Assembly: GCA_943358095.1 (NCBI GenBank)
Contig: CALRGT010000001.1
Coordinates: 450-64,449 of the forward strand
DNA: 64,000 nucleotides
Direction of reading: 5' to 3'
Origin: an uncultured Candidatus Saccharimonas sp.
GTDB lineage: Bacteria > Patescibacteriota > Saccharimonadia > Saccharimonadales > AQU-01
The translations under genes were made by a program, and so were the position numbers. The notes beneath the pieces are model-generated. The model did no database searches, was not told where the DNA came from, and worked only from the letters and a program-made list of their open reading frames with translations. Below, piece after piece: positions 6,171 to 31,933 of the stretch. Numbering within the stretch: position 1 is the stretch's first letter; each line of letters opens with the position of its first letter.

Positions 6171-6222
6171 ACATATACGGTCAGTTTTGTAATATCACAG
6201 ATAAGTGCTATAATAGCTTTAT

Positions 6223-7125: not shown

Positions 7126-7242
7126 ATCAATTTCGCTAGCTTCATTGTGAAAATTATTATAGAAATACATATTAATTCGTGATATAGTCGATTTAACTAG
7201 CTCACGGGTAACAAGAGCGATTCTATTATGTAAATAAAAGTA

Positions 7243-7271
7243 TTTACAGATAACACTTTACTTGCTATAAT
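7243..7271 (+). promoter_or_regulatory. Sigma-70-like promoter upstream of infA (TTTACA-17-TATAAT)
   Basis: TTTACA 7243-7248, 17-nt spacer, TATAAT 7266-7271, ATG of infA at 7287. Confidence 0.4.
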
Positions 7272-7286
7272 TGTCATCTGTTATAT

Positions 7287-7505
7287 ATGGCAGCCAACAA
7301 GGAAGTGATAGAACTGGCCGGAACAGTGGTAGAGACCCTTCCAGGGACTCAGTTTCGAGTAGAACTAGAGAATGGCCACCAGATAATAGCTCACGTTGCC
7401 GGGAAAATGCGAAAGCATTTTATACGAATAGTACCTGGTGACAGCGTGACGGTTGAGTTGACTCCTTACGATCTTAGTAAGGGTAGAATCACCTATCGCA
7501 AATAG
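7287..7505 (+). CDS. infA: Translation initiation factor IF-1
   Basis: 72 aa S1-like OB fold sequence ([32 protein letters not shown]...[15 protein letters not shown]). Confidence 0.9.
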
Positions 7506-7560
7506 TGCGACCTTCCAAATATTAACTAAGCAGTGTGTTATGCACCCCGCAGTAAGGAGC

Positions 7561-7686
7561 ATGATCCGCATGAAAGTGCGTGCTAGCGTCAAAAAAATCA
7601 GTCCAGATGACATCGTAGTCCGCCGTAAAGGGCGAGTCTATATTATTAATAAGCTAAAACCAAAGCATAAACAGAGGCAGGGTTAA
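7561..7686 (+). CDS. rpmJ: 50S ribosomal protein L36, Cys-less (non-zinc) form
   Basis: 41 aa [41 protein letters not shown] matches the L36 consensus except the four Zn-ligand Cys; AAGGAG RBS 7550-7555; below the ORF-track size cut-off. Confidence 0.8.
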
Positions 7687-8073
7687 ATGGCACGTATATC
7701 TGGAGTAACAATTCCATCTGATAAGCAGGTACAAATATCCCTGACTTACGTTTATGGTATCGGCCCAAAAACAGCTCGTGACATTCTTGAAGCTACCAAA
7801 GTAGAACTTACTTTGCGTGCTAAAGACTTGACCGATGCTGAAATCAGCCGCATCCAAGATCTAATTAACGAGAAATATACAGTTGAAGGCGAACTTCAAA
7901 GAATAGTTACCGGCAACATCAAGCGCCTAAAGGATATCAATTCTTACCGCGGCCTACGCCACAAAGCAAACTTACCTAGTCGCGGCCAAAGAACCAAGAC
8001 TAACGCACGCACACGTCGTGGTAAAAAAGTTACAGTTGGTGGAACAGCTAAAAAAGCAGCGACTAAGACATAA
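7687..8073 (+). CDS. rpsM: 30S ribosomal protein S13
   Basis: MARISGVTIPSDKQVQISLTYVYGIGPKTA... canonical S13. Confidence 0.9.
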   Translation: MARISGVTIPSDKQVQISLTYVYGIGPKTARDILEATKVELTLRAKDLTDAEISRIQDLINEKYTVEGELQRIVTGNIKRLKDINSYRGLRHKANLPSRGQRTKTNARTRRGKKVTVGGTAKKAATKT

Positions 8074-8092
8074 GGATTTATAAGAATATATT

Positions 8093-8491
8093 ATGGCAGA
8101 CGAACCAGTAGTAGCAGTAAAGAAAAAGAAGAGCAAGAGATCAGTTCCATTTGGTCAAATGCACGTATTTGCGTCATTTAACAACACGATCGTTACTTTT
8201 ACAGACGCCCAAGGCGGCGCACTAACAGCAGCAAGTGCTGGTAGCTGTGGTTTCCGAGGTTCTAAAAAAGGAACAGCTTATGTTGCACAAGTTGCAGCAG
8301 AAAAAGCCGGTCAAGCTGCTAAACAGCAATACGGACTAAATAAAGTTGATGTATATGTCAAGGGTATTGGTCTTGGACGAGAAGCAGCAGTTCGTGCTTT
8401 GATAAGTCTAGACATTGCCGTTGAGAGCATCAAAGATGTAACCGGTATACCTCATGGTGGTGTACGGCCGCCGAAAGCAAGGAGAGTCTAG
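8093..8491 (+). CDS. rpsK: 30S ribosomal protein S11
   Basis: 132 aa, S11 motifs ([32 protein letters not shown]). Confidence 0.9.
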
Positions 8492-8493
8492 TT

Positions 8494-9117
8494 ATGGCAC
8501 GTGATACAAGATCAATCGTAAAGATGAGTCGCCGAGAAGGTTATGCTCTACACCCTAAAGCTCACAAGGCTCTAGCTAAGCGCACAACTATGCCTGGACA
8601 GCCAGCAAACTCTCGTGGGCCACGAAACAAAGCTAGCCAGTACTCACTACAGTTGCGTGAGAAACAAAAAGTTAAGCGCTTATATGGCTTGCTTGAGAAG
8701 CAGTTTAGTAACTTGATGAAAGAGGCGTCTCGACGTCAAGGTCAATCAGGCGAAAATCTACTACACCTTTTAGAGCTAAGATTAGATAACGCTATCTACC
8801 GAAGCGGACTTGCAGTAAGTCGCCGAGCAGCACGACAACTAGCAACTCACGGGCATTTTATGCTTAACGGTCGCCGAGTTGACATTCCATCAATCAGAAT
8901 GAAGGAAGGTGACGTACTTATCGCTCGACCAAAGAGCACCAAAAGTGAATACTTTAAGAGAATAGACGAAGTTAGTCCTGCCAACCCTGACGCAATTCCA
9001 GCGTGGCTCAAAGTTGATCGTAAGAAACTACAAATTACCATCACTGGTCTACCAAGTAGAGACGATGCTGAACCAGATATTAATGAACAACTAATAGTCG
9101 AATATTACTCACGTTAA
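8494..9117 (+). CDS. rpsD: 30S ribosomal protein S4
   Basis: 207 aa with S4 RNA-binding domain (SRRAARQLATHGHFMLNGRRVDIPS). Confidence 0.9.
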   Translation: MARDTRSIVKMSRREGYALHPKAHKALAKRTTMPGQPANSRGPRNKASQYSLQLREKQKVKRLYGLLEKQFSNLMKEASRRQGQSGENLLHLLELRLDNAIYRSGLAVSRRAARQLATHGHFMLNGRRVDIPSIRMKEGDVLIARPKSTKSEYFKRIDEVSPANPDAIPAWLKVDRKKLQITITGLPSRDDAEPDINEQLIVEYYSR

Positions 9118-10083: not shown

Positions 10084-10572
10084 ATGCATCGTCACGGATA
10101 TAAAGGAAGAAAATTCGGAAGAGAACGCGACCAGCGTGAAGCTCTTATTAAGGGCCTAGCTGACTCGTTAGTAAAATACGAATCAATCGAGACTACTCTA
10201 CACAAAGCTAAAGAAATCGTACCTTATATGGAACGATTGATTACTAAAGCTAAAAAGGGTGATCTACATAATCGCCGACAGGTTATATCTAGCCTACAAA
10301 CACTTGAATCAGCTCATAAATTAGTTGACGAAATTGCACCGAAGCTTAAGGGACGCACCAGTGGACACCTTAGAATCACACGAACCGCTAACAGACGAGG
10401 CGACAACGCTCAAATCGCAAGAGTTAGCTTTGTAGACGATCTAAGTGCCGCTCCAGTAGCAGTTAAGGCAGCACCAGTTGTTGCTAATGACACTACAGTT
10501 GTTGCAACTAAAGCTAAGCCTGCTGTTAAGACCGTCAAAAAAGCAGTTAAAAAGACTACGGAGAAGAAATAA
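10084..10572 (+). CDS. rplQ: 50S ribosomal protein L17 with Ala/Lys/Val-rich C-terminal extension
   Basis: MHRHGYKGRKFGRERDQREALIKGLADSL... L17 core, ~45-aa low-complexity tail. Confidence 0.85.
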   Translation: MHRHGYKGRKFGRERDQREALIKGLADSLVKYESIETTLHKAKEIVPYMERLITKAKKGDLHNRRQVISSLQTLESAHKLVDEIAPKLKGRTSGHLRITRTANRRGDNAQIARVSFVDDLSAAPVAVKAAPVVANDTTVVATKAKPAVKTVKKAVKKTTEKK

Positions 10573-11033
10573 TGAAAACTTTTAGCGCCAAACCGGCTGA
10601 CGTTACACGAAAATGGTATGTTGTCGATGCTAGCGAAGTACCATTAGGCCGTCTCGCTACTGTCACTGCTAGTTTATTGCTAGGTAAAGGCAAGCCTACA
10701 ATCACATCACACGTTGATGGCGGAGATTTTGTTATTGTCATTAACTCTGATCAATTAGTAGTCACTGGTAACAAATTACACGACAAAATGTACTACCATC
10801 ACAGTCATTACCCAGGTGGACTTACAGAGACAAGACTTAGCGATAAGATTGCTAAAGACTCCACTACAGTCATACAGAAAGCTGTTCGTGGCATGTTGCC
10901 ATCAAACAAGCTGCGTGATGGTAGATTACAACGCTTGAAGGTTTATGCAGGACCAGAACACCAGCACGAAGCCCAGAAGCCAGAAACGATGTCACTTAGA
11001 ATCGCTTCTAAAATCAAGAAAGAGAGTAAATAA
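10572..11033 (+). CDS. rplM: 50S ribosomal protein L13
   Basis: KTFSAKPADVTRKWYVVDASEVPLGRLAT... canonical L13. Confidence 0.9.
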   Translation: MKTFSAKPADVTRKWYVVDASEVPLGRLATVTASLLLGKGKPTITSHVDGGDFVIVINSDQLVVTGNKLHDKMYYHHSHYPGGLTETRLSDKIAKDSTTVIQKAVRGMLPSNKLRDGRLQRLKVYAGPEHQHEAQKPETMSLRIASKIKKESK

Positions 11034-11440
11034 TGGCAACTAAGACAGCTAACAATTATTTTTACGCATTAGGCCGACGTAAACGCGCTACAGCTCGTGT
11101 ACGTTTATCTGGTGGTAAAGGTGTTATTACTATCAATGGCAAGCCTGCAGATGAATACCTAGCTTCAAGCAAGTACTTAATGAATGAGCTCGAAAAGCCA
11201 TTTACAGTATTAGAAGAGCTTAAGAAATTTGATGTAAGCGCTATGGTAAGTGGCGGTGGCCCAAGTGGTCAGGTTACAGCGATTCAACTTGGTATTGCTA
11301 AAGCATTGGTTGTCATGAATGACGATCTAAAAGCTACGCTTAAGCGAGCTGACTTGCTTAGTCGCGATCCTCGTGAGCGTGAACGTAAGAAGTTCGGCCT
11401 TAAGGGCGCACGTAAACAGAGACAGTTTACAAAGCGTTAA
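11033..11440 (+). CDS. rpsI: 30S ribosomal protein S9
   Basis: 135 aa; C-terminal KGARKQRQFTKR S9 signature. Confidence 0.9.
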   Translation: MATKTANNYFYALGRRKRATARVRLSGGKGVITINGKPADEYLASSKYLMNELEKPFTVLEELKKFDVSAMVSGGGPSGQVTAIQLGIAKALVVMNDDLKATLKRADLLSRDPRERERKKFGLKGARKQRQFTKR

Positions 11441-11456
11441 TACACGAACATTACTA

Positions 11457-11485
11457 AAAGGACGGTTTCGACCGTCCTTTTTTGA
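11457..11485 (+). terminator. Rho-independent terminator after rpsI
   Basis: AAAGGACGGT-TTCG-ACCGTCCTTT hairpin followed by TTTTT. Confidence 0.7.
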
Positions 11486-11668
11486 TTCAATCCGTTTAAC
11501 AGTAATAGGATTTCTTAAGATGCCATTTGTTGACGAATTAGTATATATAAGGTATATTCAATCTGTAATGACACAAAACAATCAAGGTTATCGAACATTC
11601 TGGTTTACGCACTCTACTACGGCGGTTGTTCGAGCGTATAGCGCATAATTAATCAAACAAGTTCACAT

Positions 11669-11693
11669 CAACCGCCAACAAGGCGGTTTTTTA
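11669..11693 (+). terminator. Second intrinsic terminator immediately upstream of pheA-like gene (candidate attenuator)
   Basis: AACCGCC-AACAA-GGCGGTT stem-loop followed by TTTTTT; upstream segment GGCGGTTGTT (11616-11625) can alternatively pair with the 5' arm. Confidence 0.55.
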
Positions 11694-11712
11694 ATTTAAA
11701 CAGGAAAGAAAT

Positions 11713-12573
11713 ATGAAAGAACGAATCGGTATACAAGGATCAAAAGGAGCATTTCACGAGATTGCTGCTATACAGTTGTTTGGCAAAAAACAACAGATTA
11801 TATATATCGACACCTTCGAAAAGTTATTTTCTGATTTAAATCGCGGACTAATCGACAAAGCGGTAGTTGCCATGACTAACATTCAAGTAGGCTTTATTGA
11901 TGAACCTCACAAAGAGCTAATAGCTAACAGTTCGAAGTACTGGATTAGTGGAGAAACATACGTTGCGGTTGCTCACCAACTACTCGCACTTCCAGGAACA
12001 AAACTAAGCCAGATTAAGCACATTCACTCCATGGCGCCAGCACTACAGCAGTGTTCGCACACCCTTAGGCATCTATTGCCTAATGCAGAGCTAATCGAAG
12101 AGGCAGATACGGCATTAAGCGCAGAACTGGTATCAAAATTAAATAGTCATCATCATGCAGCAGTTGCTAGCAAGCGAGCTGGCGAAATTAACGGTTTGCA
12201 GGTGATTAGCGCAAATGTTCAAGATCGTAAAAAGAATATAACCAGGTTCCTCGTATTAGAAGCTAGATCAAACCAATTAAAGGATAGAGGTAGCAAGACA
12301 GACAAAACTACTATGCTCCTTGAGACTCCTAATAAAAAGGGCGCCTTATTTAAGGCCCTACTTATTTTTTGGATGAATAGTATCAACATCACTACTCTAC
12401 ACTCGTCATTCGTAGAAGATTCAGATTTTAATGAGAAGTTTTATATAGAGTATGACGCCGGAATCTGGCGAAAGAAATCTAAGTTACTGATAAAATTCTT
12501 GACCCTTTTGGGCAACAAAGTAACGATATCAGGCAGTTATACCAACGAAAACATCAATCTTCACACTAAATAA
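11713..12573 (+). CDS. pheA: Prephenate dehydratase (catalytic PDT domain + C-terminal ACT domain)
   Basis: 286 aa; TRF motif (KNITRFLVLEA) and ACT-domain segment (TMLLETPNKKGALFKALLIFWMNSINITTLHSSFVED) characteristic of PDT. Confidence 0.65.
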   Translation: MKERIGIQGSKGAFHEIAAIQLFGKKQQIIYIDTFEKLFSDLNRGLIDKAVVAMTNIQVGFIDEPHKELIANSSKYWISGETYVAVAHQLLALPGTKLSQIKHIHSMAPALQQCSHTLRHLLPNAELIEEADTALSAELVSKLNSHHHAAVASKRAGEINGLQVISANVQDRKKNITRFLVLEARSNQLKDRGSKTDKTTMLLETPNKKGALFKALLIFWMNSINITTLHSSFVEDSDFNEKFYIEYDAGIWRKKSKLLIKFLTLLGNKVTISGSYTNENINLHTK

Positions 12574-21770: not shown

Positions 21771-22313
21771 ATGACAAAGAGATACGACACTACAAGATTA
21801 TGGTACGCAATTCATACCTATAGCGGCTATGAAGAAAAGGTAGCCGAAAGCATCAGACAGAGAGCTGAAAGTCTTGACATGAAAGATAAAATTTTTCAGG
21901 TTCTAGTACCAAAAGAAAAGATGATCGAAATCAAGAATGGTAAACGCAAAGTCGTTGAAAAGCGAATTTTCCAAGGTTACGTACTAGTCGAGATGAAATT
22001 AACAGAAGATGCTTGGTACATTGTACGCAATACTCCAAGCGTAACTGGATTCGTTGGTAGCGGTACAGAACCGACTCCTATTGATAACGACGAAATGGAA
22101 AAGATTCAGAAACGAATGGGCATCGAACAGCCTAAGTTCAAAATGGACTACAACATTGGTGACGTGGTTAACATCACTGACGGTCCATTTAAGGGCTTTG
22201 ACGGAGCTATTAACGAGATTGATCACGCTAAGGGCAAGCTAAAAGTCTTGGTTAACATGTTTGGCCGCGAAACTCCTGTAGAACTAGACAGTCTACAAGT
22301 TAAAAAGACTTAA
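21771..22313 (+). CDS. nusG: Transcription termination/antitermination factor NusG
   Basis: NGN domain (WYAIHTYSGYEEKV) and KOW domain (IGDVVNITDGPFKGFDGAI). Confidence 0.9.
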   Translation: MTKRYDTTRLWYAIHTYSGYEEKVAESIRQRAESLDMKDKIFQVLVPKEKMIEIKNGKRKVVEKRIFQGYVLVEMKLTEDAWYIVRNTPSVTGFVGSGTEPTPIDNDEMEKIQKRMGIEQPKFKMDYNIGDVVNITDGPFKGFDGAINEIDHAKGKLKVLVNMFGRETPVELDSLQVKKT

Positions 22314-22469
22314 GTGTTAGTTTTTACGACTCTTTAGAACTCTCAGCAATATTAAACGATAAGCATACCGCTAGACAACAGGGGTAGATTGTAGTACTAT
22401 ATAATCTAAGTTACGCACGAATAGCACGAGGAGCTTCAAACCTCTGCTCAAAGAAAGAGAATATAGATC

Positions 22470-22898
22470 ATGGCAAAGAAAATTACAGCTAGTTTAAAGT
22501 TAAAAATCCCTGCAGGCAAAGCAACTGCTGCACCTCCAGTAGGTAGCACACTTGGTCAGTACGGTGTTAACATGATGGATTTTATTAATCCTTTCAACGA
22601 ACAAACTCGTGACTTGGGTAACGTAACAGTTACTGCTCATATTTCAGTTTACGAAGATCGTACTATGTCATTTAGAATCGTCACTCAGCCAACTGATGAC
22701 ATGATTCGAGCAAAGCTAGGTATCGAGAAGGGTTCTGGAAAGCCAAACAGCGAAAAGATCGCTAAACAACTTACACAGACACAGCTACGAGAAATTGCTG
22801 AAGCTAAAGCTTTAGACATGAATACAGACGACATTGATGCAGTAGCTAAAATGGTAGCGGGAACTGCACGGAGTATGGGCGTCGTAGTAGAAGCCTAG
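22470..22898 (+). CDS. rplK: 50S ribosomal protein L11
   Basis: MAKKITASLKLKIPAGKATAAPPVGSTLGQYGVNMMDF... canonical L11. Confidence 0.9.
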   Translation: MAKKITASLKLKIPAGKATAAPPVGSTLGQYGVNMMDFINPFNEQTRDLGNVTVTAHISVYEDRTMSFRIVTQPTDDMIRAKLGIEKGSGKPNSEKIAKQLTQTQLREIAEAKALDMNTDDIDAVAKMVAGTARSMGVVVEA

Positions 22899-22900
22899 GT

Positions 22901-23107
22901 ATGGGCGAAGATTCAAGATTTGAGGGTTATCAAATCACGAATCCTAATTTAGACATTGAGAAGAAAAGATTAGATCCTTTTGATAGAAAGCCAGAGGACG
23001 TTGATTTTCGTTTGCCTGGAAATTACTACTTAGTCATCCAACCCGTCGACACAGAAGAATTAGACAATTCTGATGAAAGCCAAGACCCTACTAATAACGA
23101 AGCTTAA
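22901..23107 (+). CDS. Hypothetical small acidic protein translationally coupled to rplK
   Basis: 68-aa ORF starting 3 nt after the rplK stop; acidic, Pro/Asp/Glu-rich; no motif. Confidence 0.3.
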   Translation: MGEDSRFEGYQITNPNLDIEKKRLDPFDRKPEDVDFRLPGNYYLVIQPVDTEELDNSDESQDPTNNEA

Positions 23108-23212
23108 TTACACTTCAGCAGTTGATTTCGCCCCTGTAATGTGTTATATTTAGTTATCAAATTAATTTTGTGGGAGGCCTAAGTAAGCCGTTAACACCAC
23201 GAAGGAGTCATT

Positions 23213-24151
23213 ATGGCAGAAGCCAAAAAAGTTGCTAAAGCAACAACTACTAAAACTAAAAAAGCAGTTGCAGAGGAAGTAGTAGCAGTTACAGCAGAAG
23301 CTGTAGTAGCACCTATTGTAGAAGAAAAAGTAGCTAAGGCTGGCAAGCGCAGTCTTAAGGCCGTAAAAGAAGCCGAAGCTGTAGTAGCCAAAGAAGAACG
23401 CAAGCTAAAAGCTGAAGTTAATGCTGAAGCTCCTGCTCATCACCAGAAACCTACTCGTTCAATCCTAGAACGCAGAGGCAAGAATTATCGCAAAGCAAAC
23501 GAACTAGTCGAAAAGAAGAAAGTTTACGAACTTAAAGAAGCTCTTGATCTAGCTATTAAAACTAGCCTAGTAAAATTTGATGCAAGCGTAGAAATGCACA
23601 TCAATTTGGCTGTTGATCCTCGCCAAGCTGACCAAAACATTCGTGGCAGCATCGCACTACCAGCCGGTACAGGCAAAACTGTACGTATCGTTGTATTGGC
23701 AGATGCTAAGGACGCTGACGCAGCTATTAAAGCTGGTGCCGATAAAGCAGGTAGCGACGATATCTTTGCCGCACTTGATAAAGGTATAATTGATTTCGAT
23801 ATTCTAATTTGTACACCAGCTATGATGCCAAAACTTGGTAAGTATGCACGTGTACTAGGTCCAAAAGGCTTAATGCCTAACCCTAAGAGCGGTACTGTTA
23901 CACCAGATGTAGCAAAAGCTGTTAGTGAAGCAAAAGCCGGTAAAGTTGAGTTCCGTGTTGATAGTACAGGAATAGTTCACTTGGCAGTTGGTAAAGTAAG
24001 CTTTGGCGTTGAAAAGCTAGAACAAAATGCATCAGCAGTACTAGCTACTATTCGTTCTGCAAAACCACTTTCTCTAAAAGGCGGCACCTTCATAAAATCT
24101 GTACACTTGACCACAACTATGGGTCCAAGTATCAAGATTTCTTTTAACTAA
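23213..24151 (+). CDS. rplA: 50S ribosomal protein L1 with ~85-aa Ala/Lys/Glu-rich N-terminal extension
   Basis: Residues ~86-312 match L1 (KVYELKEALDLAIKTSLVKFDASVEM...); AAGGAG RBS at 23200-23205 supports the upstream start. Confidence 0.85.
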   Translation: MAEAKKVAKATTTKTKKAVAEEVVAVTAEAVVAPIVEEKVAKAGKRSLKAVKEAEAVVAKEERKLKAEVNAEAPAHHQKPTRSILERRGKNYRKANELVEKKKVYELKEALDLAIKTSLVKFDASVEMHINLAVDPRQADQNIRGSIALPAGTGKTVRIVVLADAKDADAAIKAGADKAGSDDIFAALDKGIIDFDILICTPAMMPKLGKYARVLGPKGLMPNPKSGTVTPDVAKAVSEAKAGKVEFRVDSTGIVHLAVGKVSFGVEKLEQNASAVLATIRSAKPLSLKGGTFIKSVHLTTTMGPSIKISFN

Positions 24152-24207
24152 GACGAAGTATCTACAATTAGTTTCCGTACTGACGGTCTAACTGATAATA
24201 TATTCCT

Positions 24208-24975
24208 ATGATTATAATCGGAATGACCGGTCCTATAAGCCACGGGAAGACAACTTTTGCCGATGCAATCGAAAAGATCGAACCATCTACAATTCACTTT
24301 GAATCGAGCCTAATTATTGCTGAAGTGATAAACGCGCTTCACGCCTCTACCGACAAAATACCATCACCCTATAATGTAGATAGTATCAACGAGTGGCTTA
24401 AACCGCTACCGTCTATTCTGCTTGAAGTACTTGGTGTGAAGAGTGATATCGAACAAATACGCATCAGCCAATCCGATGCCGATAAACATCCAATTGAGTA
24501 CGACAAACTCATACTGCATATTGAAGGCCTGCAAAGAGACCCTAGCCTAATAAGCAAGACTATAGATTCTGAAAACAAAGAATCATTCCGCGCAATTCTA
24601 CAGTGGGTTGGTGGCTATCTAGTTAAAAAAGTTAGTTCTGACATTTGGTACGACGAAATAATTAAAAGAGCCCGCAAAGCCGAACAGGATGGGTTTAATA
24701 TATGTATCATTGGGGGATTACGATTTCCTAGTGACGCGAAAATCGTACATCAAGCCGGTGGAATTATCATCAAGGTATACCGCCCTGATCATTTGCAGTA
24801 CGACATACTTGACCCAACCGAACGTGAACGCGACAACATCGCCTGCGACTCAACAATTATGAGCAACGGAACAATTGAAGACATGAATTTATGTGCCGTC
24901 CAAGTGCTGGAAGATATTAAGAATAAAAAGTTAGAAAAGATTTATCAAACAATTCGCTACCGAGTGAATCAATAA
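24208..24975 (+). CDS. Deoxynucleoside monophosphate kinase-like P-loop protein (T4 gp1-like)
   Basis: N-terminal GMTGPISHGKTTFADAI resembles T4 dNMP kinase (SGVKRSGKDTTADFI); central IIGGLRFPSDAKIVHQAGGIIIKVYRPD and C-terminal SNGTIEDMNLCAVQVL segments parallel the gp1 layout; 255 aa. Confidence 0.5.
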   Translation: MIIIGMTGPISHGKTTFADAIEKIEPSTIHFESSLIIAEVINALHASTDKIPSPYNVDSINEWLKPLPSILLEVLGVKSDIEQIRISQSDADKHPIEYDKLILHIEGLQRDPSLISKTIDSENKESFRAILQWVGGYLVKKVSSDIWYDEIIKRARKAEQDGFNICIIGGLRFPSDAKIVHQAGGIIIKVYRPDHLQYDILDPTERERDNIACDSTIMSNGTIEDMNLCAVQVLEDIKNKKLEKIYQTIRYRVNQ

Positions 24976-25010
24976 TATATTAAACCTAAGAGCTTAGCAT
25001 CAGGAGTGTC

Positions 25011-25547
25011 ATGGTATCTATAATCGCAGCATATACAAATAATCGAGTTCTCGGAATGGATGGTGACCTGCCTTGGGATTTACCGATTGACCGCGACAGA
25101 TTTACTAAAATAACAGATGGTTCGACCGTTATAATGGGCCGCAAAACTTACGAATCGATAGCAAAAAACTCGTCCAAGCCGCTGAGCAACAGAAGAAATA
25201 TTGTTATTTCACGGACGCTTACAAAAGTTATAGACGGATTTGAACTGACCGATACATTGGATAAAGCGCTCCAAATGTCTAACTCACATAATAGCGAAGA
25301 GGAAGTATTTGTTATTGGTGGCGGTAATCTTTTCGACTATGCTCTTCGAAATAATTTAGTAGACGAAATGTATTTAACAGAAATTGACGCTGACATAAAA
25401 GGCGACGCATACTTTCCGGAATTTGATAAGACAAAATGGATCGAAGTATCTCGAAAGTCTGTTCCTAAAAATTCACAAAATATATATGACGTATCGTTTG
25501 TAGTGTTGATGAAAATAACTAGCGCAAGCACTAAGATAGATTTATAA
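25011..25547 (+). CDS. folA: Dihydrofolate reductase
   Basis: MVSIIAAYTNNRVLGMDGDLPWDLPIDRDRFTKITDGSTVIMGRKTYESI closely follows the DHFR N-terminal consensus; 178 aa. Confidence 0.8.
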   Translation: MVSIIAAYTNNRVLGMDGDLPWDLPIDRDRFTKITDGSTVIMGRKTYESIAKNSSKPLSNRRNIVISRTLTKVIDGFELTDTLDKALQMSNSHNSEEEVFVIGGGNLFDYALRNNLVDEMYLTEIDADIKGDAYFPEFDKTKWIEVSRKSVPKNSQNIYDVSFVVLMKITSASTKIDL

Positions 25548-25684
25548 CTCGAATCTATTTATATCTCTCAAGCCTACATATTTGTAAATAAAAGGTTGTA
25601 ATATTGCACTGAGCTACTTGCGCATATGTCAAATTGTTTCGTACAATATATTGTACTTAACGACGATAAATTCTGGAGGCTAAC

Positions 25685-26398
25685 TTGGGCGTTTACAGCA
25701 ATATTCAGATCAACAAAGCAATTGAAGACAAACACATTGTTTGCGTACCGTTTAACCCAAAGCATGTCAGCCATGCCAGTCTTGATGTGACATTGGGGCA
25801 TTATTATTATCGTATCGAGAAGATGAATGAGAGGACTATCTATAATCCTTTTGACGCAGAAGATGTTGAAAGATATTTTGAAGGACCTTTTAAGGCGATG
25901 CCACACGAACAGTGGTGCAAACTGAACGGATTCGCGCCTTTAGTAGGTATACCGCCAGAACATCCCGTAATTGCCATTAAGCCAGGTGAAAGAATTTTGG
26001 CTCACACTCACGAATTTTTTGGTATTAAGCCGCCTGGCGCTTATGACCTAAGAGCGCGGTCATCTTGGGCACGTAACGGTGTGGCTGTATGCTTTGACGC
26101 CGGCTGGGTAGATCCTGGCTACATTAATAGATTAACTCTGGAGATATACAATCTTAATAGTCGAGAAACAGTCGTTTTGCCAGTGGGCGAAAGAATTGCA
26201 CAAGCTGTATTCCACGAAACTGGTGATGTTGAGGGCAACTATGGCGAAGGCAGAGACAGCAGCTTTAGCGGGAAATACCAAAATGGTACCGATATCGATA
26301 CTATTATTAAAACTTGGTCTCCAGACATGATGCTACCGAAAGCCTATTTAGACAAAAGAACAATGCCTGTCAAAATTGAAGGTTCGATTTATGAATGA
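25685..26398 (+). CDS. dcd: dCTP deaminase (dUTPase-superfamily), TTG start
   Basis: ASLDVTLGHYYYR... and RSSWARNGVAVCFDAGWVDPGYINRLTLEIYNLNS match Dcd core (GRSSLARLGL...DPGWSG...LEFYN); GGAGG RBS 6 nt before TTG. Confidence 0.7.
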   Translation: MGVYSNIQINKAIEDKHIVCVPFNPKHVSHASLDVTLGHYYYRIEKMNERTIYNPFDAEDVERYFEGPFKAMPHEQWCKLNGFAPLVGIPPEHPVIAIKPGERILAHTHEFFGIKPPGAYDLRARSSWARNGVAVCFDAGWVDPGYINRLTLEIYNLNSRETVVLPVGERIAQAVFHETGDVEGNYGEGRDSSFSGKYQNGTDIDTIIKTWSPDMMLPKAYLDKRTMPVKIEGSIYE

Positions 26399-26407
26399 TA
26401 GCAAATC

Positions 26408-28660
26408 ATGAAAAGAGGCAAGTACATAGTTCTAGAAGGAGCTGAAGGCGTAGGCAAGACAACTCAGCTTAAAATCTTGGCCAAGTATTTACAGTCAACA
26501 GGAATAGCAGTACGGTTACTACGCGAACCTGATAGTCAGAGCGACTTAACGGCAAGAACTATTCGACACCTTACTCAAAGTCCTCAATATCCTATGAATA
26601 CACGAACCGAGGTGTTGCTATATAACGCAGCCAGGGCTCAGTCCTTGCAGGTTATTAAAGAAAGCATCGAACAAGGCGTTACTTGTCTAGTAGATAGAAG
26701 CTATCTAACTACTCTAGCTGTTCAGTATTACGGGCGAGGCGACGTGCCAGAATATGACACCATTAATAATATAATCTCTTTTGCTGTTGGAGACATGGAA
26801 CCAGATCTCACTGTAATCCTGGATGCGCCGGTAGATTATTTAATTAAAAGAGCAAAATCACGCGGCCAGGGCGAAAGATTCGATAATTTAGACGAAAATT
26901 TTCTTGATAAAGTACGAGCAGGTTACTTATTAGAAGCAAAGAACCGTAATCTGCCTGTAGTTTCAGCAATTGGCGAACCGCTAGAAGTCTTTAAGCAAGT
27001 ATGGGAGCACGTCGCAAAATCTCTAGCTACAAGAACCAAATCAACAACAGCGTCAGTACCGAGTGAGCCTGTTGATAATACTGAGCTAGTTCACAAAGAC
27101 GCTAATGGCCAATATACGATTACAAGTAGTGGAAAATCTGAATTAGCTAAATATGTCACAGATTCTGAAGGTGAAGTCTACGCTTTTACGCAAGAACTTA
27201 GCCCATTAACTATCGCCGCTGCAATGGCGCGTCTTAGCCGTCGCGTTGACGATATGCGGATTACGCTATTGGACGAATTTTCTGGTCAAGCCGGCAAAGA
27301 CGAAAAACTCTTGCAGAGAGTAATTACAGCCTATGGCGATGACTCCGTTCAGCAATTAGTAGGAATGCACCTTGTAGTCGAGGGAGCATCTAACTTGCTT
27401 ACAAAAAAACTAGAGTGGGGCAGACTAGCCGCTTATCTAGAACAATCTACGAGATATATTTACTTTGACCAAAAAGATGCTGAGGGAAATTACAGGTACT
27501 TTACGCCAAAAGATTTAGACTCAGAAACTAAGGCTAAATATACTGAGGCAATGGACCAAATTTTTGATAGATATTCTATGATGGTTCGTGAACTTAGTGA
27601 CTATATTAGACGCAATTCGAAAGTACCAAAAGCCGAACAAGATACAGCATGGCTAGGCGCAACTAGAGCACAAGCTTGTGATGCAATTCGAGGCGTATTA
27701 CCCGTAGCGACCAAATCTACTGTTGGAATCTTTGCATCCGGCCAGGCACTAGAAAGCTTAATAATGCATTTGCTAAGCGATGAACTACCTGAAGCACGCG
27801 ATACAGGACAAAAAATTCTTGATGAATCGCGAAAAGTTATGCCGGCATTTCTGGAAAGGGCCGACAAACCTGAGCGTGGAGGCGCAATGATTGCCTATCG
27901 CTCAAATACCTATAAGGCTATGGAAAGTATCGCAAAAAAGAATCTGCAGGACTCCTATGGCCAATATGAAGAACCGGTGAGACTGGCAAATGTCTGGCCT
28001 CGCAATGAACTCGATCTTTTACCAGACATGCTATACGAGCACAGCAGCTTATCTTTAGAAGAAATTCGACGAGTCGTAGATGGTTGGTCATATGATAAAC
28101 GAGAGAAAGTATTCAAATCATATATTGGCGAAAGACTTAACAGACGACACAAGCCTGGACGCGCCATAGAAAAAGCCCATTATAGCTGGGACTTAGTATG
28201 CGATTATGGAATTTTCCGTGACCTGCAAAGACACCGCATGGTGGACGATTTGCAGTGGCAGGCCCTTACGCCTCGTTACGGCTATGATGTGCCAGAACTT
28301 GTAGAAGAAGCTGGGCTAAGCGATCAATACGAAGAGTGTTTTGATATTAGCGTCAGGCTTCACAGCGAGATGCAATCAGCAAAATTTGAATTAGAATCAC
28401 AATATGCCACACTGTTTGGGCATCGAATGCGTTGGAAAATTACCTATAATGCCAGACAAGCATTCCACTTTCATGAGCTTCGAACAACACCTCAAGGACA
28501 TCCAGGTTACCGCAAACTCGTTAAGCAAATGCATGATAAATTATGCGAAGTTCACCCATTAATTGGTGAGGCTATGAAGTTTGTTAACACTGACGAGGAC
28601 CCAGAACTTACGCGTCTAGCGGCAGAAAGATACACTCAGTTCAAACTGTCTCAGATGTAA
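26408..28660 (+). CDS. Thymidylate kinase fused to two tandem ThyX (flavin-dependent thymidylate synthase) modules
   Basis: aa 1-205 Tmk (YIVLEGAEGVGKTTQ, REPDS, DRSYLTTLAVQYYGRG, PDLTVILD). aa ~255-500 ThyX-like (…LEWGRLAAYLEQSTRY…ATRAQACDAIRGVLPVATKST…). aa ~505-750 second ThyX-like (…LQRHRMVDDLQWQALTPRY…ITYNARQAFHFHELR…). Confidence 0.7.
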   Translation: MKRGKYIVLEGAEGVGKTTQLKILAKYLQSTGIAVRLLREPDSQSDLTARTIRHLTQSPQYPMNTRTEVLLYNAARAQSLQVIKESIEQGVTCLVDRSYLTTLAVQYYGRGDVPEYDTINNIISFAVGDMEPDLTVILDAPVDYLIKRAKSRGQGERFDNLDENFLDKVRAGYLLEAKNRNLPVVSAIGEPLEVFKQVWEHVAKSLATRTKSTTASVPSEPVDNTELVHKDANGQYTITSSGKSELAKYVTDSEGEVYAFTQELSPLTIAAAMARLSRRVDDMRITLLDEFSGQAGKDEKLLQRVITAYGDDSVQQLVGMHLVVEGASNLLTKKLEWGRLAAYLEQSTRYIYFDQKDAEGNYRYFTPKDLDSETKAKYTEAMDQIFDRYSMMVRELSDYIRRNSKVPKAEQDTAWLGATRAQACDAIRGVLPVATKSTVGIFASGQALESLIMHLLSDELPEARDTGQKILDESRKVMPAFLERADKPERGGAMIAYRSNTYKAMESIAKKNLQDSYGQYEEPVRLANVWPRNELDLLPDMLYEHSSLSLEEIRRVVDGWSYDKREKVFKSYIGERLNRRHKPGRAIEKAHYSWDLVCDYGIFRDLQRHRMVDDLQWQALTPRYGYDVPELVEEAGLSDQYEECFDISVRLHSEMQSAKFELESQYATLFGHRMRWKITYNARQAFHFHELRTTPQGHPGYRKLVKQMHDKLCEVHPLIGEAMKFVNTDEDPELTRLAAERYTQFKLSQM

Positions 28661-28669
28661 ATCTGCGCC

Positions 28670-29161
28670 TTAAACTTCGGGGTGAGTAATTTCAAAAACA
28701 GCTATTCGACCAATATTTTTTGGAATATATGGATAGATCTCAATAGCTGCGGCGTGTGCTTTCTCGCCAGGATTAATGAGGCTTCCAGACAAACTTGATC
28801 CAGTTTCGGAATTACTTATCCATTCAACAGGATTTTTGCCTAATCGACTAAAACTAAGAGGCCCAACAGTCAAGTCAAACCTGTGAGCAGCAGAAGTGGC
28901 GCCAACTATAAATCCGTCAAGCGTAGGAGTTTCTTTGCCCTCTGGTGCTTTAAAAATAAATGGTCTAATAGTCGTCTTTTCTTCGTCTATATAGCTTGGC
29001 TCGATAGAACCGTTAAGAATATTAATAGCTCTTATGCCGAGGTCACTACCTTTAATGGTCTTTGGGTTTGTTCTAAGCAAATCAACGTAGGCATGACGAG
29101 CCGCCTCAACATCACGCATGTGTTCTATATGGTTTAATCGTTGTCTAATTGTTTCGCTCAT
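28670..29161 (-). CDS. Hypothetical protein (163 aa)
   Basis: Clean ORF convergent with the Tmk-ThyX gene; no recognisable motif. Confidence 0.4.
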   Translation of the reverse strand: MSETIRQRLNHIEHMRDVEAARHAYVDLLRTNPKTIKGSDLGIRAINILNGSIEPSYIDEEKTTIRPFIFKAPEGKETPTLDGFIVGATSAAHRFDLTVGPLSFSRLGKNPVEWISNSETGSSLSGSLINPGEKAHAAAIEIYPYIPKNIGRIAVFEITHPEV

Positions 29162-29293
29162 AGTATCAATTTCTTATCAGTACTTTTTTGTGGTTTTTAG
29201 ATGACCGAACATTATTATACTACTTTAATTGTATTTGTAAAGTTCATAGTCATTATAGTAATTTTCGTAACGAAATAAAGGTTAAAAATTATT

Positions 29294-29322
29294 TTGACAT
29301 TAGATTGCTAATCGTTTAGTAT
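29294..29322 (+). promoter_or_regulatory. Sigma-70-like promoter (TTGACA-17-TAGTAT) firing into a gene-poor 0.9-kb region
   Basis: TTGACA 29294-29299 and TAGTAT 29317-29322 inside an AT-rich divergent intergenic region. Confidence 0.3.
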
Positions 29323-29487
29323 AAATAATAATGAAAACCCAGACCCAACTAGTAGCACTCAACCTCAGTCTTCCGCGGCTGTGCCCTGAGATAGTTGGGG
29401 CCGCGTTTAGTCGATAAGACATAACGCCGTGGTACAGCCCAGCAACAAGAGCCCTAACAAAAGTTAGAGCTTTTTAAATTAAATAGA

Positions 29488-29751
29488 ATGGAATTATTGA
29501 TGAGACGAGAAACAGAACAGTACTTTAGACGTGCAATTTTAAGCGGCGACAATGGTGCTTCTGAGCAAATTAAAATGTCACACCCCGGTAAGGCTAATGG
29601 TATCAGACGTACTATGGGCGCTATTGCTGCACAAATTATTCGCTCTGAAGAGGGTTTACCTTTACCAGATTTTATAAGGCAAGAACCGTCAGCTGTTGAC
29701 TCAGTTCCTGATACAACATTTGCCGTAACAACAGAAGATGAAACAAGATAA
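29488..29751 (+). CDS. Hypothetical small protein (87 aa; alternative start 29500)
   Basis: ORF with non-random composition, stop overlapping the start of the next small ORF (TAATG); an antisense ORF overlaps, so uncertain. Confidence 0.25.
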   Translation: MELLMRRETEQYFRRAILSGDNGASEQIKMSHPGKANGIRRTMGAIAAQIIRSEEGLPLPDFIRQEPSAVDSVPDTTFAVTTEDETR

Positions 29752-29957
29752 TGGAAAAGAACATAGAAAATTTTGATATTAACAGTCCAGAAACAACTAA
29801 TGAACGCATAGCTAAATTGCACAGACAAGGTCGCTTAATCCCAGCTCCGCCAGACACTGCTTTTTTTGGAGGCCGTCCCGCAGGAATCGTAGGAATAAGT
29901 GGCGCTGAAGTAGAAATGGTATTTGTCGGCTTAGGCAATGCTGTCGAAAACATATAG
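29751..29957 (+). CDS. Hypothetical small protein (68 aa), translationally coupled to the preceding ORF
   Basis: TAATG coupling; Gly/Ala/Pro-containing sequence; no motif. Confidence 0.25.
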   Translation: MEKNIENFDINSPETTNERIAKLHRQGRLIPAPPDTAFFGGRPAGIVGISGAEVEMVFVGLGNAVENI

Positions 29958-30102
29958 TAGCTCGCGCGTACGCCGATCACAGGCACACCGTAAATACGTT
30001 TTTTCTAATGCCACAGATAGAAGAGGTATATAACTATCCGACGCAGATCTATGGCGACTCGTTTCCAAGGGGTTATGAGGATTAAATTTGCCCGATATGT
30101 GA

Positions 30103-30131
30103 TTGACTTAATCTGTTAAATAGACTAGAAT
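30103..30131 (+). promoter_or_regulatory. Sigma-70-like promoter for rplJ-rplL (TTGACT-17-TAGAAT)
   Basis: TTGACT 30103-30108, 17-nt spacer, TAGAAT 30126-30131, ~190 nt upstream of rplJ. Confidence 0.45.
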
Positions 30132-30318
30132 AACTCTGTTACCAAAGACAGTAGCGGTGAGTCCTAACAGACAAACGTAAAAATGCTACCGAGGTCAGAA
30201 TTTATTCTCTTCGAAATTATTAGTCTTTGATGTAAATCGTCGAAGACTTTTTATTTTCGGTAACAAACAGTCCTCAATGGTCGATGGCTGTTAATAACAA
30301 CAAAAGGAAACATTATCT
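30132..30318 (+). promoter_or_regulatory. rplJ 5' leader (candidate L10(L12)4 autoregulatory leader)
   Basis: Long untranslated leader between promoter and rplJ, as found for L10 leaders in most bacteria; structure not verified. Confidence 0.3.
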
Positions 30319-30843
30319 ATGGCGCTAAGTAGAATCAAGAAGAACGAAGTACTCGACGAAGTCAGTGGCTTACTCGATGCTTCAAAACTTACTGTACTTG
30401 CAGCATATGCCGGTACGAGCGTGAAAGAGCTACAAGAGTTGCGAAAATCAGCTCGTGAAAACTCGACTCACGTTAGAGTCATCAAAAACCGTTTGGTCAT
30501 TAAGGCACTACAAAACAACGAACGCTTTAAAGCAGTTGACACTAGCGCACTAAAAGGCCAGATACTATACGCCTTCAACAGCGAAGACGAAGTAGCTTCA
30601 GCACAAGTTTTGGCAAAGTTTGCTAAAACCGCTCCAACTCTTCAATTCGTAGGTGGTATCAGTAGCGAAGGTGCTTTTATTAGCGCCGACGACGTAAAAG
30701 CCCTAGCATTATTGCCGGGCAAAAATCAGCTTATTGCTGAGGTACTGGCAACACTTTCATCTCCGTTAGACGGAGTTATGAACGGTTTGTCAGGCAACTT
30801 ACACGCTCTACTCGATGGAGTAGAAGCTAAGGCAAAAGCCTAA
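30319..30843 (+). CDS. rplJ: 50S ribosomal protein L10
   Basis: 174 aa L10; followed by rplL. Confidence 0.9.
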   Translation: MALSRIKKNEVLDEVSGLLDASKLTVLAAYAGTSVKELQELRKSARENSTHVRVIKNRLVIKALQNNERFKAVDTSALKGQILYAFNSEDEVASAQVLAKFAKTAPTLQFVGGISSEGAFISADDVKALALLPGKNQLIAEVLATLSSPLDGVMNGLSGNLHALLDGVEAKAKA

Positions 30844-30865
30844 TTAATTTAAGAAAGGATCTATC

Positions 30866-31246
30866 ATGGCAGATTTAAAGAAGATTGCAGAACAGTTAAC
30901 AGGCTTGACTGTACTAGAAGTTAACGAACTTAAGACTATCCTTAAGGATGAATACGGTATCGAACCAGCTGCAGCAGCAGTTGCAATGGCCGGTCCAGCT
31001 GGCGGCGGCGACGCTGCTCCTGCTGAAGACGCTAAAAGTGAATACAACGTCGTTCTAAAAGACGCTGGTGCACAGAAGGTCGCTATCATCAAAGCTGTTA
31101 AGGACATCACAGGCCTAGGTCTTGGTGAAGCTAAAGCTCTAGTTGATGGTGCTCCAAAAACTATCTTAGAAAACGCTAAGAAAGATGACGCTGAAGCAGC
31201 CAAGAAAACTCTTGAAGACGCTGGCGCAACTGTCGAACTAGTCTAA
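30866..31246 (+). CDS. rplL: 50S ribosomal protein L7/L12
   Basis: N-terminal dimerisation helix, Ala/Gly/Pro hinge ([21 protein letters not shown]), conserved C-terminal domain ([28 protein letters not shown]). Confidence 0.9.
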
Positions 31247-31265
31247 TCACTAGATTCTGCAATGA

Positions 31266-31305
31266 ATAGAGCTCTGTCCCTTGGACGGGGCTCTATTTAT
31301 TTCTG
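31266..31305 (+). terminator. Intrinsic terminator after rplL
   Basis: ATAGAGCTCTGTCCC-TTGG-ACGGGGCTCTAT hairpin followed by TTATTTCT. Confidence 0.6.
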
Positions 31306-31423
31306 CCGATCTTTTAATGATAGTTGTCCACAGAATTATTTTAATTTTTTGACTTGACGAACGAACCGTGGTACGTTAAAGCTAATATTGGAGCAAAAAT
31401 AGACAGGATACGCTGGAGCAAAT

Positions 31424-31933
31424 ATGGCCGACTTCCCAGAGAAACAAGTTAAAAGACTAAGAACCCTCATTCAGGAGGCAGAAACAAGCCTAGCTGCCGC
31501 TAAAGAGCTTCTAGTTAGCATTGTGGGCGAAGATCCTACAGTTACTGCATCATTGACCGACGATAACCTAGGTAAAATCATCGAAGGTGTATTTGATGGT
31601 CAAATTATGGTTGGCTCTGACGGCAAGACTTATCCAGTGCCAGCAAATTACGCTTCTAAATCAAAATTAGTCCAAGGTGACATACTTAAACTTACAATTG
31701 CAGACGATGGCGCCTTTATGTACAAGCAAATCGGGCCTATACCTCGCAAGCAGATTGTCGGTATGCTAGAACTAAAAGACGGACATTACTTTGTAAACGT
31801 CGGTGAACGAGCTTACCGCGTATTACTTGCTAGCGTGACTTACTTTAAGGCAAAGCCTGGCGACCAAGTTAGCGTAAACGTACCAGAAGACGACGACCAT
31901 ACCGAATGGGCTGCTCTAGAAGCAGCTCTGTAG
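31424..31933 (+). CDS. Hypothetical protein (169 aa)
   Basis: Clean ORF with GGAG RBS; no motif recognised. Confidence 0.4.
   Translation: MADFPEKQVKRLRTLIQEAETSLAAAKELLVSIVGEDPTVTASLTDDNLGKIIEGVFDGQIMVGSDGKTYPVPANYASKSKLVQGDILKLTIADDGAFMYKQIGPIPRKQIVGMLELKDGHYFVNVGERAYRVLLASVTYFKAKPGDQVSVNVPEDDDHTEWAALEAAL

Follow-up and report, generated by a model that had tools for sequence, protein, structure and literature searches.

Nucleotide-metabolism genes between rplA and rplJ of a Saccharibacteria genome: very probably an old arrangement of the clade, with a candidate structured RNA

The DNA analysed here, referred to as the window, is a stretch of 64,000 nt from an uncultured Candidatus Saccharimonas sp. 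(contig CALRGT010000001.1), and our subject is the slot between its ribosomal protein genes rplA and rplJ. A block of 6.0 kb separates the end of rplA (24151) from the rplJ promoter and L10 leader (30103 and 30124, respectively). It encodes a deoxynucleoside monophosphate (dNMP) kinase resembling gp1 of phage T4 (dnk), a dihydrofolate reductase (DHFR, folA), a dCTP deaminase (dcd) and a fusion of thymidylate kinase (Tmk) with two repeats of the flavin-dependent thymidylate synthase ThyX, followed by a convergent gene (hyp163), a structured RNA and two small open reading frames (ORFs), all of which are summarized in Table 1. The block, its named genes and an rplJ promoter at about 30103 had been pointed out in an original prediction made from the letters of the window, and our ORF listing, family scans and the match to the L10 leader model RF00557 bear this out. 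That prediction further took the block for a horizontally acquired, possibly phage-derived, island. We conclude instead that it is very probably an old, vertically inherited arrangement of a large clade of Saccharibacteria (Saccharimonadales) and neither mobile nor recent, a reading that builds on what was directly observed, namely the identities of the genes, their synteny and composition, and the conserved promoter.

The distance from rplA to rplJ is 6.2 kb in the window versus 42-319 bp (median 273) in 24 of the 29 loci from outside Saccharibacteria that were fetched with L1 and have a detectable rplJ, and a gap this long is unusual against bacteria in general. The gene order secE-nusG-rplK-rplA...rplJ-rplL is that of the canonical secE-nusG-rplKA / rplJL-rpoBC cluster of Escherichia coli and Bacillus, and rplJL has, as it does there, its own promoter and L10 leader, so that rplKA and rplJL are separate units. 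What sets the window apart from the canonical cluster is the boundary between the two operons, which holds about 6 kb of nucleotide-metabolism genes along with small ORFs and an RNA element that the canonical cluster lacks, as well as the presence of small ORFs after nusG and after rplK.

Comparison with other loci (numbered L001 and so on, the relatives of the window being Saccharibacteria loci) showed that the slot order kinase-dcd-tmk/thyX is kept in about 15 Saccharibacteria loci, the L1, L10 and L11 proteins of which are 55-92% identical to those of the window. When 18 Saccharibacteria loci were searched with tblastn, dnk, dcd and/or tmk-thyX were found right after rplA in L001, L002, L003, L004, L006 and L010, and rplJ-rplL then follows wherever the contig reaches (those of L001 and L003 are cut short). 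The same order occurs in L081, L083, L084, L085 and L086 and in L102, an independent microbial-mat contig, with variants in L087 and L088. The gene contexts compared were those of tmk-thyX homologues at 96%, 80%, 69%, 67% and 67%, on contigs of 9-821 kb from different assemblies and habitats. Written out, the context reads secE-nusG-(x)-rplK-(x)-rplA-[kinase]-dcd-tmk/thyX-<hyp-...-rplJ-rplL-...-dnaX. The L1 protein of the window has its closest homologues in GTDB representative genomes exclusively in metagenome-assembled genomes of Saccharibacteria, at 52-65% identity.

The block is also native in composition. Its GC content (0.416) is close to that of the window as a whole (0.408), its tetranucleotide distance (0.0113) lies at the median of same-size windows (mean 0.0116 +/- 0.0019), and the GC at third codon positions and relative synonymous codon usage distance of its genes fall within those of window genes of similar length (0-56th percentile). 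No att-like repeats bridge 24152-24207 and 29162-30123, and a search of 23900-30400 gave short chance matches only; the ORFs of the gap had no match to a mobility family, integrase or transposase in the Pfam, NCBIfam and PHROG scans. The original prediction had asked whether rplA directly precedes the rplJ leader in related genomes, whether the block deviates in GC and codon usage, whether its proteins match phages best and whether both borders carry att-like repeats. Across a broad set of Saccharibacteria the core genes lie between rplA and rplJ, the composition is typical of the window, the best protein matches are orthologues from Saccharibacteria, not phage proteins, and no repeats were found. 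Because the slot is occupied across a broad set of Saccharibacteria with ordinary composition and the best matches are not to phages, the two outcomes named beforehand as speaking against it, the phage-island origin fails.

That a self-contained dTTP module was recently acquired, possibly from a phage, and placed into the canonical rplKAJL string is therefore very improbable. The idea draws on a gene set like that with which large lytic phages (T4-like and jumbo) make nucleotides, and the modules of these phages hold the same kinds of enzymes, namely dNMP kinase, DHFR, dCTP deaminase, thymidylate synthase and Tmk; all four enzymes of the window match PHROG families, and the long gap is itself uncommon among other bacteria. 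Unlike phage modules, however, the cluster of the window has affinity to phages at the family level only and sits in conserved chromosomal synteny with native composition. Against 50,697 phage genomes the matches reach 25-42% identity, versus 52-96% for orthologues of the lineage: the best phage match is 33% for dcd and 42% for DHFR, and the parts of the fusion reach about 33% (Tmk) and 25% (ThyX), never as a fusion. When IMG/VR was scanned with family profiles, no relative of either the fusion or the kinase was confirmed on viral contigs. Trees of the cluster and its flanks are largely congruent as well. In a test on protein distances among ten loci, those of dcd and tmk-thyX correlate with those of nusG, rplK, rplA, rplJ and rplL (Mantel r=0.66, reached by 59 of 5000 permutations), and the neighbour-joining trees share five of seven splits, including all three with 100% bootstrap.

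Table 1. Features of the rplA-rplJ slot in the window and of selected comparison loci.
Feature	Coordinates	Strand	Remarks
rplA (L1, 312 aa)	23213-24151	+	PF00687 E=2.3e-59, aa 116-305; orthologues in L001-L018; upstream boundary of slot
dnk, T4-gp1-like dNMP kinase (255 aa)	24208-24975	+	begins 56 nt past rplA; PF21448/PHROG 139
folA, dihydrofolate reductase	25011-25547	+	PF00186 E=9e-48, 162 bits; 35-nt gap after dnk
Sigma-70-like promoter of dcd-tmk/thyX unit	25618-25648	+	TTGCGC-17-TACAAT; conserved in 10 aligned loci
dcd, dCTP deaminase (237 aa)	25685-26398	+	PF22769 E=5e-31; TIGR02274 95.1 bits vs cut-off 92.8
tmk-thyX fusion (750 aa)	26408-28660	+	PF02223 E=1e-28; PF02511 E=4.5e-34 in 2 stretches
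Tmk domain (aa 1-200)	26408-27007	+	TIGR00041 111.2 bits vs cut-off 83.25
ThyX repeat 1 (about aa 266-480)	27203-27847	+	degenerate motif WGR...STRY
ThyX repeat 2 (about aa 545-735)	28040-28612	+	intact RHR 608-610 ... TPRY 621-624
hyp163, convergent (163 aa)	28670-29161	-	family-less ORF, conserved position
Promoter-like site of hyp163	29214-29241	-	TTTACA-16-TATAAT; 11/12 matches; best score in 22300-31500
Promoter-like site for RNA and small ORFs	29294-29322	+	TTGACA-17-TAGTAT; conserved in L083
Conserved structured RNA, ~150 nt	29330-29480	+	three-way junction, then intrinsic terminator/antiterminator
Small ORF (87 aa)	29488-29751	+	93% identity in L083
Small ORF (68 aa)	29751-29957	+	75% identity in L083
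rplJ promoter-like site	30103-30131	+	TTGACT-17-TAGAAT; downstream boundary of slot
L10 leader RF00557	30124-30262	+	60.1 bits vs gathering score 44; 57 nt upstream of rplJ
rplJ	30319-30843	+	PF00466; orthologues in comparison loci
rplL	30866-31246	+	orthologues in comparison loci
First gene after rplA, Tmk-type kinase, L085	5537-6190
First gene after rplA, Tmk-type kinase, L086	5525-6190
First gene after rplA, Tmk-type kinase, L088	4419-5060
First gene after rplA, Tmk-type kinase, L102	about 6816-7319	-
Structured RNA, L081	10979-11129
Structured RNA, L084	10096-10243
Structured RNA, L087	12801-12941
Structured RNA, L004	14872-15000
Structured RNA, L006	10331-10464
Structured RNA, L088	10859-10989

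A phage connection does exist for dnk, if a distant one. Its PF21448 score of 25.8 bits falls slightly under the gathering score of 27.1; its orthologues carry PF21448, and dnk itself matches PHROG 139 over its full length (E=1e-21). The P-loop (Walker A) GMTGPIxHGKTT at aa 5-16 is invariant in 21 members of the family, a profile of which found T4 gp1 (1DEK) as its best PDB match (E=1.2e-3, residues 121-229 to 125-233). Both proteins are P-loop kinases of about 250 aa, and by these profile matches dnk is a genuine remote relative of T4 gp1, in line with the original prediction. Kinases of the T4 gp1 type act on dGMP, dTMP and hm-dCMP. Unlike T4 gp1, it belongs to a chromosomal and syntenic Saccharibacteria family; among 342 homologues, the best 120 are all Saccharibacteria proteins of about 250 aa with 55-96% identity, whereas the best identity in phage genomes is just 25-30% (E of about 1e-4). 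No NCBIfam bacterial family covers dnk in the NCBIfam scan.

In L085, L086, L088 and L102 an unrelated stand-alone kinase of the Tmk type takes the place of dnk after rplA. The position of the kinase is fixed and its family is not, which is a case of non-orthologous displacement. As a side observation, what comes next to rplA in every case is a gene for a small P-loop nucleotide kinase, drawn from two unrelated families (DNMK-type or Tmk-type). An intermediate possibility is that the arrangement as a whole is old and vertical while at least the gp1-like kinase entered the ancestor of the clade from a phage. The match to PHROG 139, T4 gp1 as the best solved structure, the lack of an NCBIfam bacterial family and the replaceability of the position all agree with such an entry; the low phage identity and the absence of an IMG/VR relative do not, and the direction of transfer is not inferable here, as phages often take such genes from their hosts. 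We consider an ancient phage contribution of this kind possible but unlikely.

The downstream half of the cluster begins with dcd, orthologues of which are found in the same position with 57-85% identity. In the promoter ahead of it, the TTGC and TAnAAT columns show little or no variation across all 10 aligned loci, and the sequence around them is unconserved. Because these promoter columns are conserved in ten loci, we regard dcd and tmk-thyX as an old, self-standing transcription unit. Defence systems based on a dCTP deaminase and carrying kinase domains are known, and kinase and dcd adjoin in the window, so a nucleotide-depletion defence against phages was considered. A PADLOC scan, however, gave no match for dcd, dnk or the ORFs without family, and the Tmk domain matched a generic P-loop kinase only; dcd passes the cut-off of the housekeeping equivalog TIGR02274, and the cluster is universal and syntenic within the clade, not patchy as defence islands are. 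We find a defence function scarcely credible.

The gene that follows encodes three domains in a single chain. The Tmk domain is well supported at the level of fold, with TM-scores of 0.80-0.85 to Tmk crystal structures (Foldseek on an AlphaFold2 model), and the 50 best Foldseek matches listed for the fusion model were all Tmk structures. The ThyX part scores 118.3 bits against PF02511 (gathering score 24.8). In repeat 2 the signature R608-H609-R610 ... T621-P622-R623-Y624 is invariant or nearly so in 30 sequences and shares the RHR...(S/T)xRY pattern of ThyX from Mycobacterium tuberculosis (3GWC, PF02511); repeat 1 aligns to 3GWC too, with WGR...STRY standing where the latter has RHR...SQRY. 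Unlike the M. tuberculosis enzyme, the protein of the window has two tandem ThyX repeats in one chain with an N-terminal Tmk fused to them. Orthology of function with ThyX is putative, and thymidylate synthase activity of the fusion is predicted. Among 4165 homologues the best 120 are all full-length fusions from Saccharimonadales/Saccharibacteria with 66-100% identity. Our literature searches found no paper on a Tmk-ThyX fusion or on ThyX of Saccharibacteria/Patescibacteria, and databases annotate proteins of this type as 'dTMP kinase'; the Tmk-ThyX-ThyX fusion is thus undescribed in the literature, yet visible in databases.

DHFR is the sole enzyme of the cluster that is lineage-specific at its position. 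Of the loci compared, just L083 (98%) and L081 (56%) share with the window a DHFR gene placed exactly there. All models of trimethoprim-resistance Dfr proteins score 40-120 bits versus cut-offs of 250-420, showing that it is not a resistance allele. Two of the next relatives, in L087 (52%) and L088 (46%), both lie in the same rplA/rplJ slot and are joined to thyA: the upstream thyA overlaps folA in a thyA-folA-HIT unit, translationally coupled, with a dCMP deaminase on the opposite strand. The pair has been called a 'two-enzyme adaptive unit' of folate metabolism, and in these sister Saccharibacteria it is present in overlapping form within the slot. The window, in contrast, has folA without thyA; its thymidylate synthase is ThyX, an enzyme that leaves tetrahydrofolate (THF) unoxidised and so yields no dihydrofolate. 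No homologue of thyA, HIT, dCMP deaminase, NUDIX or MprF was found in the 64 kb of the window. Since its nearest relatives are folA genes of Saccharibacteria in the same slot joined to thyA, the folA of the window is best explained as the surviving half of a thyA-folA pair, the thyA of which was presumably lost. The original prediction had remarked that ThyX does not need DHFR; this stands as far as the chemistry goes, and the apparent puzzle is explained by the thyA-folA pairs of sister lineages. In candidate phyla radiation (CPR) bacteria, folA is present in 54.8% of 4581 genomes and is functional, complementing an E. coli delta-folA strain (PMC11974145). A retained folA would reduce scavenged folate or dihydrofolate, a role which fits this prevalence and function (PMC11974145).

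Alternatively, DHFR alone could have been acquired separately and later from another bacterium and dropped between dnk and dcd. The confinement of its exact position to the lineage of the window (window, L083, L081) would be expected in that case; beyond the relatives at 52-56% identity there follows a flat plateau of 42-48% formed by diverse bacteria (Bacteroidota, Peregrinibacteria, Methylophilaceae), and its GC of 0.376 is the lowest in the cluster. On the other hand, the codon usage of folA is typical of the window (56th percentile), and its closest relatives outside its own species stand at 56%, 52%, 47%, 48% and 46%. The three of them for which the context was checked (L081, L087, L088) are all Saccharibacteria with the gene in the same slot, two of the three beside thyA. 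An independent bacterial acquisition is thus the weaker alternative to a thyA-folA remnant, and we hold it to be distinctly unlikely.

Two of the sister loci suggest how thymidylate enzymes come and go in the slot. L088 holds both the thyA-folA-HIT unit and an intact tmk-thyX; it is without dcd and has the dCMP deaminase instead. In L087 (thyA 7108-8004, folA 8001-8519) the Tmk-ThyX protein at 10539-12149 is 536 aa long and barely recognisable, with Pfam E-values of about 1e-4 for both domains, which looks like a replacement of thymidylate synthase in progress. By this gene content the slot seems to host alternative and mutually replacing thymidylate solutions, ThyX versus ThyA-DHFR. The accessory content varies within the clade and includes the DNMK- or Tmk-type kinase, MprF, NUDIX, thyA-folA-HIT, dCMP deaminase and threonine dehydratase; the slot is compositionally stable and its accessory content turns over. 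The cluster is built of known enzyme families, and accessory turnover explains the stray DHFR; as an inherited feature of the clade, the finding is largely ordinary.

Several observations weigh against reading the cluster as an old, inherited pathway for thymidylate. At this site the more distant, mostly animal-associated and Nanosyncoccus-like loci L008, L009, L012 and L015-L017 have either other genes or none; the arrangement therefore marks a clade, not the whole phylum, and must go back to an ancient insertion. L102 groups with L004 by its flanks (157/200 bootstraps) and with L006 by its cluster genes (200/200), a conflict that either a long-branch artefact or a transfer of the module between members of the clade could produce. 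Apart from this clade, it is mainly phages in which the DNMK family is known. Within the fusion, the ThyX part stays below the equivalog cut-off of TIGR02170 (56.4 versus 87.9 bits) and represents a divergent subfamily, its sequence matches in the PDB are marginal (E=0.04), with phmmer matching Tmk only, and the AlphaFold2 model, built on a 30-sequence alignment, is poor and unreliable in the ThyX part (mean predicted local distance difference test score 62.5). The absence of thyA, finally, covers the 64-kb window only.

Downstream of the enzymes lies what we regard as the most novel item of the slot, the structured RNA of about 150 nt. It stood out as conserved against a diverged intergenic background in an alignment with L081, the 80% relative. 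A pattern scan of metagenomes returned 41 loci, eight of which are true homologues and the rest GC-rich chance matches; together with the window, L081, L083 and L084 this gave 12 carriers of the pattern. A covariance model from ten carriers also found the element in L087, L004, L006, L088 and L003. There are 13 full members (window, L081, L084, L087, L004, L006, L088, L096, L097, L098, L102, L121 and L123), in ten of which rplJ lies within about 1.5 kb downstream. Upstream of the RNA, wherever the contig extends, lies tmk-thyX or a ThyX-like gene.

A three-way junction (P1 GGCUGU/ACAGCC, P2 and P3) with a strong intrinsic terminator behind it can be folded from each member, and a terminator hairpin with a U-run was present in 10 of 10 sequences. 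P2 covaries, with GCCCUGA/UUGGGGC in the lineage of the window and GCUUCAA/UUGAAGC elsewhere, and these changes are matched in the 5′ half of the terminator (GCCCUAAC versus GGCUUCAAC). Therefore, the 3′ strand of P2 can form an antiterminator of 8-10 bp in every sequence, and this duplex has energies of -9.5 to -16.7 kcal/mol. Shuffled sequences average -2.4 to -5.1, and no more than 3 in 500 of them come up to the observed value. Over 13 sequences, which were aligned by fitting them to the model, the paired cells amount to 90.2% versus 81.1% in shuffles (reached by none of 500) and 31-44% with the partners slid, and 12 of 22 pairs changed on both sides, again reached in none of 500 shuffles. 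When applied to a MAFFT alignment, RNAalifold chose a local CAGCC/GGCUG hairpin over P1; either can form, but the compensatory changes in the model-fitted alignment speak for P1.

No match was found among the 4227 families of Rfam 15, either for the window at E<=5 or for four homologues at E<=1. Signal recognition particle RNA, 6S RNA and an upstream part of the L10 leader were considered as identities of the element and rejected, as the Rfam models do not match; the L10 leader is detected separately, downstream of it. Like riboswitch and attenuator leaders, the element has its own promoter, a covarying 5′ domain of several helices, an intrinsic terminator and an antiterminator mutually exclusive with it, and a ribosome-binding site and ORF follow directly. 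Unlike described riboswitches, it matches no Rfam 15 family, and the ORF 14-60 nt past the terminator is not homologous between lineages, which is atypical of a gene-specific riboswitch. We put the element forward as a candidate for a new regulatory RNA of the clade, be it a riboswitch, another attenuator or a small RNA. A more far-reaching proposal, which we offer tentatively and think rather doubtful, is that an undescribed sensor RNA of Saccharibacteria (a riboswitch or protein-binding leader) switches between terminator and antiterminator and so gates transcription arriving from the side of the thymidylate cluster into the variable small ORFs and possibly rplJL, linking the status of DNA precursors or folate to ribosome synthesis in a slot that swaps ThyX and ThyA-DHFR.

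The end of the block had been described as an AT-rich, gene-poor 0.9-kb stretch, a picture that did not hold. The tail 29162-30123 has a GC of 0.394, at the 25th percentile of same-size windows, and contains the structured RNA, two small ORFs and the three best promoter-like sites of 22300-31500, belonging to hyp163, the rightward unit and rplJ. Only the divergent-promoter spacer 29162-29329 (168 bp) is AT-rich, with a GC of 0.226. Scans of Pfam, NCBIfam, PHROG and PADLOC gave no match for the hyp163 protein. In L081, L083-L087, L002, L004 and L006, too, tmk-thyX is followed by a convergent ORF, and homology to hyp163 is recognisable in L083 (94%), L081 (31%) and L087 (27%) only; hyp163 evolves fast in sequence and is conserved in position. 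The two small ORFs, which overlap by TAA/ATG and had no family match in the NCBIfam and PHROG scans, match the two halves, N-terminal and C-terminal, of one 138-aa ORF of L081 (11147-11563; E=2e-3 and 5e-8), and they represent one small protein family that is split in the lineage of the window. By eye they also resemble a 169-aa ORF of L087 (12957-13466). In L083, the 96% relative, the rplJ promoter is set apart from the small ORFs by some 230 additional bases that contain a 76-aa ORF (about 6220-6560); the window is without them (at about 29997), so that this is a recent indel in the slot.

A number of further observations concern the surroundings of the slot and its cargo. The window L1 carries an N-terminal extension of about 80 aa rich in Ala, Lys, Glu and Val (23213-23450), with the Pfam domain beginning at aa 116; the L1 proteins of its relatives are 305-332 aa long, so the extension is a trait of the clade. 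A 68-aa ORF without family match (22901-23107, forward strand) begins 3 nt past the rplK stop and lies between rplK and rplA. Small ORFs of 55-130 aa are interleaved at conserved positions in the secE-nusG-rplK-rplA string of the window and its relatives, those after nusG being located at 3613-3846 in L081, 1359-1946 in L084 and 3296-3688 in L085. Between rplL and dnaX, a 169-aa protein (31424-31933, forward strand) without Pfam or NCBIfam family shows 59-85% identity in all Saccharibacteria loci examined, the distant animal-associated ones included; its conservation equals that of the ribosomal proteins, which makes its gene a candidate for the core set. Within the slot itself, the groundwater Saccharibacteria L085 (10537-11910) and L086 (10491-12348) also hold a threonine dehydratase (PALP + Thr_dehydrat_C), with RidA just ahead of rplJ in L086, and an MprF-like lysyl-phosphatidylglycerol synthase is encoded on the opposite strand in L084, L087 and L003. 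The slot, in other words, accumulates unrelated cargo.

As for function, the original prediction saw a self-contained dTTP supply module, and the gene identities broadly agree with it: they make up a coherent module leading from dCTP via dUMP and dTMP to dTDP, accompanied by a dNMP kinase. We infer the enzyme activities and the co-transcription of the genes as follows. Dcd would deaminate dCTP to dUTP, or directly to dUMP if it is bifunctional, the dUTP route proceeding via a dUTPase. The ThyX part of the fusion would methylate dUMP to dTMP with methylene-THF (CH2-THF) and reduced flavin, and the fused Tmk would take dTMP to dTDP, while the gp1-like kinase would phosphorylate salvaged dNMPs into the pool. 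No terminator-like site was detected between rplA, dnk and folA; because of this and the short gaps (56 and 35 nt), read-through from rplKA into dnk and folA is probable, and would tie these two genes to growth-rate-controlled expression. The boundary between rplKA and rplJL has very probably long housed a thymidylate and deoxynucleoside triphosphate (dNTP) module in this clade.

What looked like a phage island is a lineage signature, and it cautions that the kinds of genes present and the interruption of a 'universal' synteny are not by themselves enough to diagnose horizontal gene transfer. The structured RNA absent from Rfam could be a new class of regulatory RNA in CPR bacteria. The interchange of ThyX and ThyA-DHFR in the slot, including a decaying Tmk-ThyX beside thyA-folA, amounts to a natural experiment on the replacement of thymidylate synthase. 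That the thymidylate supply of the clade is wedged between rplKA and rplJL bears on how reduced epibionts make and salvage the precursors of their DNA.

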